A DNA stretch of 64,000 bases from an uncultured Brevinematales bacterium (GCA_964428015.1 CAYRWR010000007.1:21546-85545); one strand, 5' to 3'. Positions 7,265 through 19,947 are shown, counted from the first letter of the stretch. Made by a program: numbers and translations. Notes: generated by a model not told the origin, from the sequence alone.

Positions 7265-7828
7265 TTAATCCTGTGATGGCGCTGAAAGAAATACCCAATA
7301 ATGTTTGTACTCTGAGTTTGGGTCATAGTAATGACCAATAGCTACTACTGTCTGAGAGCTATAAAATTCTATTTCCCCTAAAACATGTTTCTTATGTCCA
7401 GGTGAGTTCATCCACCCGGTATATGTCTCCTGTGCTGTGCTTCTGCCACCACTGATAGATTCAATATAATTCGCAGCTTTTTCATTCTTCCACCATTCAG
7501 GAAGTTTATAACCGGCTTTTTTGAGGAGATAATTTGGACCGTATCCATCAGGATTGGTATGTGAAAAATAATTCCGTTTAGCCATGTCTTTTGCCCGTTC
7601 CCTGGCTACTTGCAGAAGTATAGGATCAAAGGTTATGTTTTTACGGTTTTGTTTGGTATCGCTGAGTAGTATAACAATAAATGCCTGTTCTTTATCAGTA
7701 AATTCTACTGTCTGTTTTTTGTCCATTTTTTCGGAATCACTATCACCCCTACTTTTACTCCAAACCGTTTGGACCTGTACACTAATTAACATTAATGAAA
7801 AAACCAGCACGATTCTTTTCAATAGCAT
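7265..7828 (-). CDS. Secreted CAP/SCP (PR-1-like, YkwD-type) domain protein
   Basis: Track ORF 7265..7840 starts at TTG. The ATG at 7828 is preceded by GGAGGGAG. It has a signal peptide (LLKRIVLVFSLMLISVQVQTVWS) and the C-terminal motifs NYFSHTNPDG ... GWMNSPGHKKH typical of bacterial SCP/CAP domains. Confidence 0.8.
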   Translation of the reverse strand: MLLKRIVLVFSLMLISVQVQTVWSKSRGDSDSEKMDKKQTVEFTDKEQAFIVILLSDTKQNRKNITFDPILLQVARERAKDMAKRNYFSHTNPDGYGPNYLLKKAGYKLPEWWKNEKAANYIESISGGRSTAQETYTGWMNSPGHKKHVLGEIEFYSSQTVVAIGHYYDPNSEYKHYWVFLSAPSQD

Positions 7829-8140
7829 CTCTCCCTCCAAAACGCTTTATTTACCTGATTATACATCCAATCAATTTCTCATACAATAGAATGAGTAGAT
7901 ATTTTCTATTAAAAATATATGCGAATATATTTATTTCAAATATTTCGACACTGGTACAAACAGAGTCAATCAGTTATATCCAAACTGCCTTTACCTATTT
8001 CATTTCACAATATTTATCACCAAAATGCAAAATCATGACAGAGGTCCTATATAAATGTGACAGTAATCCTATTGTAAGGCAGGTGCCGGAGGTGATATTA
8101 TAATGGACCAAATAAAAAAAATATTACCAAGGAGTACGTT

Positions 8141-16861: not shown

Positions 16862-17485
16862 TTAATCCCGGCGCTTACGCCTCAGTTTCCTGTCCAGGAA
16901 ATTCTTATGTAACCTTTTTCTAAGCAAAGGAAGTATGCCCAATGCAACCAGAAATATTATTATCAGAGCTATTAAGGGCTTCTCCTGGCTTTTATCTGAA
17001 AGATTAGAAGGGGCAGTAACTGGCCGCTTCCCTTTTCTCCAGGACCAGGGCGGTAGTGGAGCTTCGTCCTGCCACAGGCCGATCCTGGCTTCACGTGCTT
17101 TTTTTTCGAGCAGATACCAGTTTAGACAAAAATCTTTTTTGCAATAGCCGGTATAGACCCAGGCCAGCCCTTTTTCCACCAGTAAAGAATTGATGTTGCT
17201 GCCCTGATAGTCCAGCAGAGCCAATACCCGTTGGTATTGATCTGTACCTAATGGCTGTACATCTATGAGTTTTCCCTGAATGGAATCCACCAGAAATTTT
17301 CTGGCATCTGCCCCGCCGGGCTGATCCATTTCCGGGCAGTCTATACCGTACAAACGGATTTTTATGAGAGTACCCCGGGAGTCCACAGTGACAGTATCGC
17401 CGTCATGGATTGTGACTACCCTGCCTTCCCAGGCAAATGTCACTGAAAAACCCAGCAGAAAAATTAAGATTGACACTATTTTCAT
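16862..17485 (-). CDS. Thermonuclease (SNase-like) with a signal peptide and a C-terminal membrane anchor
   Basis: SNase motifs are present (VTIHDGDTVTV, IRLYGIDCPE, ARIGLWQ). It has an N-terminal signal and a C-terminal hydrophobic segment (LIALIIIFLVALGILPLL) followed by a basic tail. Confidence 0.85.
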   Translation of the reverse strand: MKIVSILIFLLGFSVTFAWEGRVVTIHDGDTVTVDSRGTLIKIRLYGIDCPEMDQPGGADARKFLVDSIQGKLIDVQPLGTDQYQRVLALLDYQGSNINSLLVEKGLAWVYTGYCKKDFCLNWYLLEKKAREARIGLWQDEAPLPPWSWRKGKRPVTAPSNLSDKSQEKPLIALIIIFLVALGILPLLRKRLHKNFLDRKLRRKRRD

Positions 17486-17550
17486 TTTTACCTTCCCTGT
17501 AGTATAGTATTATACAGGAAAACTCAGGTATTTGGCAAACAGGAGGAGTT

Positions 17551-18273
17551 ATGAAATTCTACTTACTGATTTTTATTTTGATTTTGCCGGCGGCGGGCTT
17601 TTGTGACTCTTACACCTACCTCAACTGTATACTGCAGAATAACACTATCTCAGCTGACAAAAACCTGAAGCGACTCTCCAGCGGCATTCAGCTATTGACA
17701 GATGACCCGGCGTATAAAGCTATCTACGAAAAACTGGAATCACAGATGCGTGCTCTGGATAGTATGGTTACCGGTCAGCAGGATATGATCAACTACTATA
17801 CCTATGAAGAAGCGGTCCTGGCAAATGTGACCGAAAGCCTCAATAGAATCCGTGAGCTGGCCCTGCAGATGGGCAATTCCCTTCTGGGGGACACAGAAAA
17901 AGACATTATCCGTTCAGAAATGCGCCAGCATTATGAACAGGTCTTATATGAATTGCGCACTGCTCAGTTCAATACCAAGCCGCTTTTTTCAGAATTGTTA
18001 AAAGACCCTGTGGTAACTTCCCGTCTGAATTCCCCGGATTTTTATACCTTAGGATCCATAGATACTCTGCTCCAGTTTATCCTGCAGCGCAGAGTGCTGC
18101 TGGGCAGCTGGTCCAACCGCCTGCGCCACCAGATCAAGGGTGACATGATCAATCAGGAAAACACTGCAGAATTTCAATCTCATGGCGATACAGATTATGG
18201 ACGCGAACTGAGTGAGTTTAAACGAAATCAACTGCTTCTACTGATCAATGTTCTCATGCTTAAGCCCCGTTAA
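17551..18273 (+). CDS. Short flagellin-family (D0/D1-only) homolog with an N-terminal signal-like peptide
   Basis: The flagellin_N pattern is present: KRLSSGIQLLTDDPAYKAIYEKL ... LNRIRELALQMGN ... AQFNTKPLF. So is the flagellin_C pattern: LLGSWSNRLRH ... ELSEFKRNQLL. It is preceded by MKFYLLIFILILPAAGFC (signal peptide or possible lipobox). Confidence 0.6.
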   Translation: MKFYLLIFILILPAAGFCDSYTYLNCILQNNTISADKNLKRLSSGIQLLTDDPAYKAIYEKLESQMRALDSMVTGQQDMINYYTYEEAVLANVTESLNRIRELALQMGNSLLGDTEKDIIRSEMRQHYEQVLYELRTAQFNTKPLFSELLKDPVVTSRLNSPDFYTLGSIDTLLQFILQRRVLLGSWSNRLRHQIKGDMINQENTAEFQSHGDTDYGRELSEFKRNQLLLLINVLMLKPR

Positions 18274-18351
18274 TTCTGTTTATTGACTTTTGCTGGCTTT
18301 GCTTTATCATTTAGTCTATCAGGTATTTCAATTTCACATTGCGGGGTCACT

Positions 18352-19947
18352 ATGAAAAAAGGTTACTGGATGCTGGTACTGCATGCGCATCTTCCTTTTG
18401 TACGACATCCTGAATACGCGGACGCTCTGGAAGAACGCTGGCTGTATGAAGCAATCACCGAAACCTACATTCCTATGCTGGAAATGTACGACCGTTTAAA
18501 TAAAGAAGGCATTTATTTCAGGGTCACCATGTCCCTCACCCCGCCCCTGGCTAATATGCTGGCAGACCCATTGCTGCAGGACAGATACCTGCATCACATC
18601 AACCAGATGATCGAACTTGCTGAAAAAGAAGTGACCCGCACCCAGTACCTTCCGGAATTTCACCGCAGTGCCATGCACTACCTCAGAAAATTCAAATCAG
18701 CCCGCGATCTTTTCCAGAATAAATATCACAAAAATCTGCTGCTGGGCTTTAAATTGTTTCAGGATCTGGGGAATCTGGAAATACTGACCTGCGGTGCTAC
18801 CCACGGCTTTCTGCCCCTCATGGATATGTATCCCAGCGCGGTACGGGGCCAGGTACTCACTGCTGTAGAGGACTATAAGAGGCATTTTGGAATAGCTCCC
18901 AAAGGAATGTGGAACGGAGAATGCGGCTACTATCCCGGACTGGAATCTCTGCTCAAAGAAGGCCAGATCAAGTATTTTTACACCGACACCCATGGGCTCC
19001 TGCATGCTTCCAGCCGCCCCAAGTATGGGGTCTTTGCACCTATGATGACACCTAATCACATAGCCTACTTCGGACGTGATGTAGAGACTTCCAATTCCGT
19101 ATGGAGCGCGGATGAAGGCTATCCTGGTGACCCCAACTACCGAGAATTCTACCGGGATATCGGGTTTGACCTGGATTATGAATACATCAAGCCCTATATC
19201 CATGAAAGCGGCCTGCGCATAGCCACCGGCATCAAGTATCACAAGATCACCAGCAAAGATACACCCATGGAGCAGAAGCATGCCTATGACCCTGAGTATG
19301 CCTATTCCCGTACCATAGAGCATGCCCAGAATTTTACTTTTAACCGTGAGCGCCAGGTAGACTATCTCAGCAATATCATGGATAGAGAGCCACTCATTGT
19401 CAGTATGTATGATGCCGAGTTATTCGGGCACTGGTGGTATGAAGGGCCTGATTTTATTTACAATCTGCTGAAAAGCATCCATCACAGCCAGGTGCTGGAG
19501 ACCATCACCGCTCCTGAATACCTGGACCGTTATCCTGATAACCAGACTGCCACACCTCCCATGTCCAGCTGGGGCTATAAAGGATATAATGAATTCTGGC
19601 TCAATGATACCAATGACTGGGTCTACCGCCATCTGCACAAAGGCTGTGAGCGTGTAATAGAACTAGCTAACAAATTCAAAACCAGTAAAGACAAGCTGAT
19701 ACAGAGAGCCTGCAACCAGGCTGCCCGCGAACTGCTGCTGGCACAATCCTCTGACTGGGCTTTTATCATGCGAACCAATACTATGGTGGAATATGCCAAA
19801 AAAAGGACAGTAGACCACCTGGGTAGACTGGAAAAACTGCATTCAATGATATTTGCTGAAAAAGTGGACACTAAGTGGCTGGCTGAGACAGAATACCGGG
19901 ACAATATTTTTCCTGAAATTAATTTCCGGGTGTGGGCAGATAGCTGA
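18352..19947 (+). CDS. Glycoside hydrolase family 57 protein (1,4-alpha-glucan branching enzyme type)
   Basis: The track ORF starts at TTG 18283. The ATG at 18352 gives the typical GH57 N-terminus MKKGYWMLVLHAHLPFVRHPE. Further GH57 blocks are present (GFLPLM, SMYDAELFGHWWYEG), with a C-terminal helical domain. Confidence 0.85.
   Translation: MKKGYWMLVLHAHLPFVRHPEYADALEERWLYEAITETYIPMLEMYDRLNKEGIYFRVTMSLTPPLANMLADPLLQDRYLHHINQMIELAEKEVTRTQYLPEFHRSAMHYLRKFKSARDLFQNKYHKNLLLGFKLFQDLGNLEILTCGATHGFLPLMDMYPSAVRGQVLTAVEDYKRHFGIAPKGMWNGECGYYPGLESLLKEGQIKYFYTDTHGLLHASSRPKYGVFAPMMTPNHIAYFGRDVETSNSVWSADEGYPGDPNYREFYRDIGFDLDYEYIKPYIHESGLRIATGIKYHKITSKDTPMEQKHAYDPEYAYSRTIEHAQNFTFNRERQVDYLSNIMDREPLIVSMYDAELFGHWWYEGPDFIYNLLKSIHHSQVLETITAPEYLDRYPDNQTATPPMSSWGYKGYNEFWLNDTNDWVYRHLHKGCERVIELANKFKTSKDKLIQRACNQAARELLLAQSSDWAFIMRTNTMVEYAKKRTVDHLGRLEKLHSMIFAEKVDTKWLAETEYRDNIFPEINFRVWADS

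Follow-up and report, generated by a model that had tools for sequence, protein, structure and literature searches.

A minimal flagellin homologue with a predicted Sec signal peptide represents a distinct clade in spirochaetes

Flagellins are textbook substrates of the flagellar type III secretion system (T3SS), and their termini are thought to be jointly constrained by export, chaperone binding, channel formation and polymerisation. What is to be made of a flagellin homologue that starts with a Sec-type signal sequence? A 64,000-nucleotide stretch of DNA from an uncultured Brevinematales bacterium (GCA_964428015.1, CAYRWR010000007.1:21546-85545; hereafter the window) raises this question. It contains an open reading frame (ORF) of 240 amino acids (aa), at 17551..18273 on the plus strand, whose product was described in an initial annotation as a minimal flagellin homologue with a Sec or lipoprotein-type signal, encoded outside any flagellar operon. 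The ORF is exactly as described, all the peptide motifs quoted were found in its translation, and the identical protein (P0001) is present in NCBI and Logan assemblies. We report that this protein is a member of a conserved, previously unremarked clade of the flagellin superfamily in which a predicted Sec leader is a shared feature, and we discuss what such a protein may do in the spirochaete periplasm.

We first consider whether the protein is a flagellin at all. In Pfam, PF00669 (Flagellin_N) matched residues 28-148 with 56 bits against a gathering score of 26.6 (E=5.9e-15), whereas PF00700 (Flagellin_C) reached 17.6 bits against a gathering score of 23, so that only the N-terminal of the two domain matches passed for the window copy; several relatives carry precomputed PF00700 matches. 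A Pfam scan at E<=10 returned only these two families and two chance matches, with no FlaA family. When the PDB was searched with phmmer, many filament flagellins, among them B. subtilis Hag and Leptospira FlaB1, were matched with E-values of about 1e-16, the alignment consisting of two separate stretches, an N-terminal one (about 24-150) and a C-terminal one (about 165-237). With PF00669 above its cutoff and both termini aligning to solved flagellins, the description as a minimal homologue reduced to D0 and D1 holds. The reported lack of a variable middle domain also stands and goes further than was claimed: D2 and D3 are absent, and so is a stretch of ~40 residues between the N- and C-terminal parts of D1 (ND1 and CD1) that is present even in minimal flagellins and is missing from the whole family.

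All 20-odd NCBIfam flagellin models stayed far under their cutoffs, the best being NF009446 with 67 bits against 352. Because the Pfam and PDB matches are good while the NCBIfam models fall this short, the protein belongs to the flagellin superfamily but to none of its named families. FlgL (HAP3), which has a similar flagellin-type N-terminal helical region, was rejected as an identity (TIGR02550, 58.1 bits against a cutoff of 127.2; NF005187, 36 against 337). The solved FlgL chains matched in the PDB differ from the window protein in size, with 338 and 411 residues, and FlgL itself lacks a signal peptide, using the flagellar T3SS for export; FlgL genes normally lie within flagellar operons. 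In the source records, family members are named only 'flagellin', 'flagellin-like hook-associated protein FlgL' or 'hypothetical protein', and the FlgL name, given by JGI, is an unspecific automatic label and not evidence for FlgL.

The N-terminus sets the protein apart from canonical flagellins, which have no cleavable signal and are exported through the flagellar T3SS. In the window copy the predicted leader consists of an n-region MK, an h-region FYLLIFILIL and a c-region PAAGFC, with cleavage predicted after G16 or C18. Its maximum 9-residue Kyte-Doolittle hydropathy is 3.36, compared with 0.4-1.1 in canonical flagellins, and the RLSSG motif is found at residue 41 instead of 29-31. We called leaders by rule, using hydropathy and the (-3,-1) rule; for the counts, at least 18 residues had to precede the conserved 'LN' motif of the N-terminal D0 helix (ND0) and the 9-residue hydropathy maximum had to be at least 2.0. 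The motif was anchored by alignment, as anchoring by regular expression misplaced several sequences. A leader was present in 46 of the 47 family members with an N-terminus and in only 1/54 canonical short flagellins (Fisher p = 1.6e-26). The sole leaderless member lies on an 813-bp contig. Among the 54 canonical proteins the median leader length was 14 residues and the median hydropathy maximum 0.63, and the only one with a leader was P0091.

The composition of the leaders is also that expected of Sec signals. In the regex-anchored set the n-region held K or R in 39/44 sequences and a (-3,-1) site was found in 41/44, with Ala at -1 in 28. Most relatives have AxA-type sites for signal peptidase I (SPase I), such as ISA/E, VFA/Q, ASA/Q, LSA/E, AFA/Q and VQA/D (the slash marks the predicted cut). 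Three further members from spirochaete contigs of metagenome-assembled genomes (MAGs) carry leaders as well, one of them with a textbook ...ARASA/QSDS. The Sec-type signal proposed for the window protein is thus supported, as a prediction, both by its own hydropathy and by its conservation in the family.

Could the hydrophobic N-terminus be an artefact? If the start had been mis-called, the protein might simply be a flagellin or FlgL of the usual kind that uses the flagellar T3SS, as the automatic names of its relatives would have it, or else the gene might be a decaying relic. Over the first 70 in-frame codons, a Shine-Dalgarno sequence was seen only at the codon-1 ATG. The second in-frame ATG is codon 66; two TTGs, codons 10 and 12, fall within the hydrophobic core and are not preceded by a Shine-Dalgarno sequence, and every alternative start before codon 49 falls within the hydrophobic stretch. 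The start of the orthologue at locus L007 is likewise preceded by AGGAGG. A downstream start is ruled out by this single ribosome-binding site together with the leader, which is kept across the whole clade in members only 30-60% identical. The predicted leader is therefore a genuine feature of the family rather than a start-codon artefact. The low NCBIfam scores and the family-wide absence of the C-terminal D0 end that canonical flagellins require also argue against an ordinary flagellin or FlgL, and gene decay is unlikely because a monophyletic clade keeps invariant motifs (see below). We find an ordinary flagellin, FlgL or relic barely credible as an explanation.

Start mis-calls do occur among the relatives, and can conceal the leader from automated surveys. 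P0003 probably begins 4 codons earlier than called (upstream L009:9986-10000), at ATG AAA AAA CTA ATG, giving MKKLM... and restoring a basic n-region. P0006 (L010:6932-7021) was called from an upstream GTG that adds 30 spurious residues ahead of the real MKRILLF... start, and for P0026 the call covers only part of the L002 ORF.

The lipoprotein part of the initial annotation did not stand. It was based on the segment ending AAGFC, where Cys18 directly follows the hydrophobic core and precedes an Asp; lipidation of this Cys after cleavage by signal peptidase II would anchor the flagellin-like domain to a membrane, and spirochaetal lipoboxes are known to be loose. However, the residue at -1 is Phe, whereas the classical lipobox (PROSITE PS51257) needs A, G or S there. 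Moreover, the Cys is particular to this copy and not a family trait. A word-indexed search gave six close relatives, 37-100% identical, all with a hydrophobic N-terminus, and Cys was seen only in the window copy; the 59%, 55% and 51% identical orthologues read LVFS, LVFG and LLFP. A Cys in the c-region was counted in about 6/44 members of the regex-anchored set. We consider a lipoprotein very improbable.

An uncleaved signal-anchor, tethering the protein to the cytoplasmic membrane with its flagellin-like domain in the periplasm, has somewhat more in its favour. The window copy has no clean AxA site (PAAGFC/D), and a few relatives, for example P0004 (...LLFP/LSS) and P0030, have poor -1 residues. 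Most members, on the other hand, have AxA-type sites 3-8 residues ahead of the conserved ND0 helix, and a stable transmembrane anchor would normally be longer than their h-regions of about 10-14 residues. A signal-anchor is thus improbable in our view, and a cleaved leader is assumed in what follows.

To define the extent of the family, 1.84 billion representatives were searched exhaustively with a HMMER profile. At E<=1e-30, end-to-end matches in a single stretch were obtained for about 45 clusters (50% identity); below them ordinary flagellins begin, which match in two stretches. The clade as a whole comprises about 45-50 such clusters. In a neighbour-joining tree (231 columns, 105 sequences, 200 bootstraps) the family was monophyletic in 199/200 replicates. 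Its nearest non-family sequences were atypical short flagellins on long branches, and we saw no specific affinity that would support a derivation from FlaB, the FlaB-like P0070 and P0071 being no closer than others. P0091 emerged as a weak sister (105/200). Literature searches on Sec-signal or flagellin-like proteins gave no description of the family, nor did the recent papers on spirochaete filaments that we consulted.

All hosts that carry a taxonomic label belong to the Spirochaetota. They include a Brevinematales MAG, whose member is 55% identical and lies in synteny identical to the window, further MAGs labelled 'Spirochaetes', 'Spirochaetia' or 'Spirochaetaceae', and the cultured Spirochaeta isovalerica, which carries the homologue P0173 (NCBI name 'flagellin'). 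Beside the gene for the divergent P0058 lies one for a TypA protein that shares up to 90% identity with TypA of Rectinemataceae and whose named hits are all spirochaetal. As far as its members carry labels, the family thus appears to be restricted to spirochaetes.

Two proteins met in these searches deserve a separate mention. P0091 (L015:10001-10825) is a 274-aa flagellin-like protein with a signal-like leader, MGRSGFLKILFILVIGILLTSSVMSQ..., and a short C-terminus, ...GILILKNK; its context is without flagellar genes, the adjoining genes encoding a glycosyltransferase and a cyclic nucleotide (cNMP)-GGDEF protein. P0057 (1101 aa) has two complete sets of flagellin N- and C-terminal helices flanking large non-flagellin inserts, one of which bears a HEFTH motif of the zinc-metalloprotease (HExxH) type. 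It entered the family matches only via its flagellin helices and is unrelated to the present finding.

What has been kept and what has been lost in the family is not evenly distributed along the chain. The best-conserved part is the D1 core, with the motifs LQRIREL, FN-x-K-x-LF and R-x-x-LG-x-x-x-N-x-L. Over 35 members, R101, L103 and N141 are invariant, and Q98, E123, F146, D171, R181 and G185 are conserved in >=90%. The ND0 helix has a motif of its own, S-L-x-[FY]-L-N-R-I-L, in which L24, N25 and L28 are >=90% conserved. After RLSSG the family has a 2-residue deletion, DDPA-Y/N replacing the canonical A-x-DDAAG.

The D0 region has diverged as well. At ND0 positions 21, 23, 24 and 27 the family has L/F/L/I where flagellins have S/N/A/N, and at positions 230-236 of the C-terminal D0 helix (CD0) it has F/L/V/N/L/L/M where they have Q/Q/A/G/V/A/V. 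As judged from these alignments, the D0 helices are systematically more hydrophobic in the family than in canonical flagellins. The C-terminus is also shortened. The window protein ends in ...NQLLLLINVLMLKPR, reading ...VLMLKPR, and the canonical ...AQANQxPQxVLxLL tail is absent. Aligned with canonical minimal flagellins, the family is without the final 12-14 residues, and the tail past the 'ML' position measured 0-6 aa in 47/52 family members as opposed to 14-18 aa in nearly all of 58 canonical proteins (p = 8e-23).

Structure prediction agrees with a flagellin fold. With a mixed family-plus-flagellin alignment, AlphaFold2 gave an all-helical model with a mean predicted local distance difference test (pLDDT) of 73.5, which Foldseek matched with probability 1.0 to filament flagellins including Leptospira FlaB, at a query TM-score (TMq) of about 0.6. 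An alignment of 35 family members only gave a pLDDT of 84.0 and a predicted TM-score (pTM) of 0.78, with the helix order ND0, ND1a, ND1b, mini-hairpin, CD1, CD0. Helices were modelled at 53-107 and 114-136, and the hairpin at about 139-145. Across both models the Foldseek probability against flagellin filaments was 1.0, with TMq values of 0.45-0.62.

All together, these results point to a flagellin paralogue that would be exported by Sec, cleaved by SPase I and released into the periplasm, where it would probably interact with the periplasmic flagellum; we give this interpretation about even chances. A spirochaete-restricted offshoot of the flagellins would have changed its export route, the cleavable leader taking the place of the disordered N-terminus that is read by the flagellar type III apparatus. 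The mature protein, predicted to be acidic and helical, of ~26 kDa, about 222-224 aa and a pI of about 5.5, would be delivered straight into the compartment that houses the spirochaete flagellar filament. The FliS chaperone docks on the C-terminal D0 of flagellins, and the inner tube lining the export channel is made up of D0. Departure from the T3SS route would explain both the loss of this chaperone-binding, channel-forming tail and the hydrophobic replacements: the missing CD0 end would be a consequence of leaving the flagellar export pathway, and Leu, Ile and Phe at formerly polar or small positions would be expected of helices released from lining a hydrophilic export channel.

The D1 core may tell what the protein does. 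Protofilament contacts depend on the LQRIREL region of D1. Since the motifs for subunit-subunit contacts are retained, the protein would be expected to function through flagellin-type helical packing, most likely with the FlaB filament, otherwise with itself. The most economical target would be the periplasmic FlaB filament, of which it could be an accessory, sheath or assembly-modulating component; we hold this somewhat tentatively, at an even chance or slightly less. Such a component would be Sec-delivered, analogous in route to FlaA.

Comparison with known systems places the family between two groups. It resembles FlaB and minimal D0/D1 flagellins such as B. subtilis Hag in its homologous D0/D1 helical fold and small size, in the motifs RLSSG, LQRIREL, FN-x-K-x-L and R-x-x-LG-x-x-x-NRL and, for FlaB, in the host phylum. 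It differs from them by a predicted Sec/SPase I leader where they have an N-terminus recognised by the T3SS, by the missing CD0 end and ND1-CD1 insert, by the deletion after RLSSG and the hydrophobic D0, by failing every NCBIfam flagellin cutoff, and by having no adjacent motility genes and no visible sigma28 promoter. The sheath proteins FlaA, FcpA/FcpB, FlaL1 and FlaL2 occur in the same phylum and share the (for the family, predicted) Sec route into the periplasm; for FlaA, FlaL1 and FlaL2 this route to the filament is established. They would be the closest functional analogy if the family protein decorates or modulates the filament, but there is no relationship in sequence or fold. FlaA is reported to share no homology with FlaB, FlaL1 to be a HEAT-repeat protein and the other sheath components of the asymmetric lattice to be mainly beta-sheet, whereas the family protein is a flagellin paralogue. 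Another flagellin-fold precedent is offered by p5 and p6 of Sphingomonas sp. A1 (PDB 2ZBI, 3K8V, 3K8W), for which a non-motility role at the cell surface has been proposed and which appear among both the sequence and the structure matches in the PDB. They are full flagellins with extra domains and no Sec leader, and the resemblance is that of the general D1 fold only. The family is thus most like FlaA in its predicted route and most like FlaB/Hag in its ancestry, and is a member of neither.

Several observations weigh against a flagellar role. The link of the family to flagella consists of homology and a shared compartment alone. As had been noted, the gene lies outside a flagellar operon, between an SNase-family thermonuclease and a glycoside hydrolase family 57 (GH57) enzyme, and among the ORFs of >=150 aa that we scanned with Pfam in the 64 kb window there was no motility gene. 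Spirochaete flaB and flaA genes are often monocistronic, so that this location is weak evidence by itself. In eight distinct contexts of family genes we found a flagellar neighbour in none. Nor was a sigma28-type promoter seen upstream of eight family loci: over the 160 nt preceding each gene, TAAA-N14-16-GCCGATAA gave only poor matches, at inconsistent positions. Among the matches found, no family member was named Treponema, Borrelia, Leptospira or Brachyspira, and no flagellin-fold sheath protein has been reported in the filament structures from these four genera that we examined. The RLSSG motif has been lost in some members, hinting at relaxed flagellin-type constraints. Finally, the family-only model fits filament-form flagellin worse than the mixed one (TMq 0.45 against 0.60, rmsd (root mean square deviation) about 28 Å), which could reflect a different, compact D0-D1 arrangement or be a modelling artefact caused by the leader still present on the chain.

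Several of these points would suit the main alternative, in which a protein of flagellin fold is exported by Sec but serves some purpose other than the flagellum, either as a self-assembling, channel-less polymer or oligomer in the periplasm or as an envelope protein that buries its hydrophobic D0 hairpin in a membrane or in a partner. The isolated gene contexts, the lack of a sigma28 promoter and the degenerate RLSSG would then be of one piece with the markedly hydrophobic D0 helices and with a confident family-only model that departs from the filament conformation. Moreover, in one case three response-regulator genes directly precede the family gene, and one divergent member comes from the Rectinemataceae, a lineage that includes a rod-shaped spirochaete. 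Yet it is the D1 motifs for flagellin-flagellin contacts that are best conserved, and the labelled hosts all belong to a phylum with periplasmic flagella, in which an encounter with FlaB would be hard to avoid. Repurposing of the flagellin fold, which the initial annotation had suggested, is plausible on these sequences; a role wholly apart from the flagellum we regard as possible but on the unlikely side.

A bolder version may be considered, namely that the family contains the first flagellin-fold protein to be assembled from the outside, without a T3SS channel, its Sec-delivered periplasmic subunits either coating or intercalating into the FlaB filament or forming a channel-less fibre of flagellin type. 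The short, hydrophobic D0 would then reflect that an export lumen is no longer needed. We think this doubtful, but if true it would be a natural experiment that parts flagellin polymerisation from T3SS export.

The clade is of interest beyond its own function. It keeps the polymerisation core, appears to have swapped the export signal and has lost the chaperone-binding and channel-forming end, and thereby separates by function constraints that act jointly on flagellins. Bacteria with periplasmic flagella are the only setting where a Sec-exported protein meets the filament, and the labelled family members occur only there. If the proteins bind or build onto periplasmic flagella, they would constitute a filament component of a new class and offer a lead on the control of curvature and assembly in environmental spirochaetes; if they do not bind flagella, they would be a clear case of a flagellin fold recruited to a non-motility role in the envelope. 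The family is experimentally approachable because S. isovalerica is cultured. In practice, pipelines that label its members 'flagellin' or 'FlgL' inflate flagellin counts in spirochaete MAGs.

Features of the flagellin-like gene, its neighbours and other genes of the window
Feature	Coordinates	Strand	Basis or remark
Weak sigma70-like promoter candidate, TTTTCA-18-TATAGT	17479..17508	+	consensus scan, 9/12 matches
Shine-Dalgarno AGGAGG	17541..17546	+	4 nt before the ATG of the flagellin-like coding sequence; read from the sequence
Flagellin-like coding sequence, 240 aa, stop included	17551..18273	+	ORF list
Predicted Sec signal peptide, residues 1-18	17551..17604	+	hydropathy, (-3,-1) rule
ND0 helix and RLSSG segment, residues 19-45	17605..17685	+	aligns to flagellin from about position 9 onward
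ND1 region, residues 46-148	17686..17994	+	DDPAY, LNRIRELALQ, FNTKPLF mini-hairpin; PF00669 over 28-148
CD1 and shortened hydrophobic CD0, residues 166-238	18046..18264	+	C-terminal stretch aligns to solved flagellins
SNase-family nuclease	16862..17485	-	upstream, divergent from the flagellin-like gene
GH57 branching enzyme	18283..19947	+	downstream neighbour
Ankyrin-repeat protein, 784 aa	4667..7021	-	Ank_2, 480 bits, 12 stretches
CAP/SCP-domain protein	7265..7840	-	
ORF, 570 aa	8141..9853	+	no Pfam match
ORF, 511 aa	21745..23280	-	no Pfam match
Queuine tRNA-ribosyltransferase (TGT) fusion, 674 aa	38345..40369	-	TGT, 448 bits
PBS/HEAT-repeat protein, 346 aa	47756..48796	+	
CsgG-like paralogue, 486 aa	50401..51861	+	PF03783, partial, E about 1e-11
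CsgG-like paralogue, 402 aa	61494..62702	+	PF03783, partial, E about 1e-11

The surroundings of the gene are summarised in the table. The promoter candidate sits in the 65 bp between the flagellin-like gene and the divergently oriented SNase gene, and an AT-rich -10-like block (TATATTATAAA/TAGTATTATAC) is common to the window and the Brevinematales orthologue loci L007 and L009. The real start of the GH57 enzyme is probably an ATG near 18352. Also near the gene are a SpoIIE phosphatase, a cNMP-binding protein and dnaX-ybaB-recR. The remaining genes of the window are of a housekeeping kind: pyruvate:ferredoxin oxidoreductase (PFOR), mlaDEF-like genes, dnaB, L9, ssb, tgt, lptF/G, grpE-dnaK-dnaJ, PPK2, an amidase and rlmN. 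No tRNA and no Rfam match were found in the 64 kb.

The arrangement of SNase gene, flagellin-like gene and GH57 gene is kept only among close Brevinematales relatives. It is absent at L002, L003, L004, L010, L011, L013 and L016, and the seven contexts beyond the Brevinematales type have no neighbour in common. With synteny limited in this way, we did not infer a functional linkage to the nuclease or to the glycogen branching enzyme. At L016:4974-8004, on a Rectinemataceae-like contig, the gene for P0058, which lacks RLSSG, lies 33 nt downstream of three response-regulator genes in the same orientation (REC, REC-PAS-HisKA_2 and REC). Co-transcription with this signalling module is a possibility, in a single case.

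Some other genes of the window are worth recording. The SNase neighbour has a signal-like N-terminal peptide, MKIVSILIFLLGFSVTFA, and ends in a hydrophobic segment followed by a polybasic tail, ...LIALIIIFLVALGILPLLRKRLHKNFLDRKLRRKRRD, which suggests a membrane-tethered extracytoplasmic nuclease. The PBS/HEAT-repeat protein adjoins grpE-dnaK-dnaJ and has a textbook signal peptide, MKKFLLILAGLLCLSPALA/EEKPK. As FlaL1 of the T. denticola sheath is made of HEAT repeats and exported by Sec, this product could by analogy be a periplasmic flagellar accessory; a sequence search of the PDB for such a FlaL1-like relationship matched only generic designed HEAT repeats.

The ankyrin protein consists almost entirely of repeats, which is unusual in a free-living bacterium, and the CAP/SCP-domain gene is located near it. 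In length the two CsgG-like paralogues far exceed CsgG, and curli genes were not seen in the window. The TGT fusion carries a C-terminal Methyltransf_30 (MnmC-like) domain, an uncommon combination. Of the two large ORFs without a Pfam match, the 511-aa one begins with a signal-like segment; its position in the syntenic L007 is taken by a 491-aa gene, also without a Pfam match.

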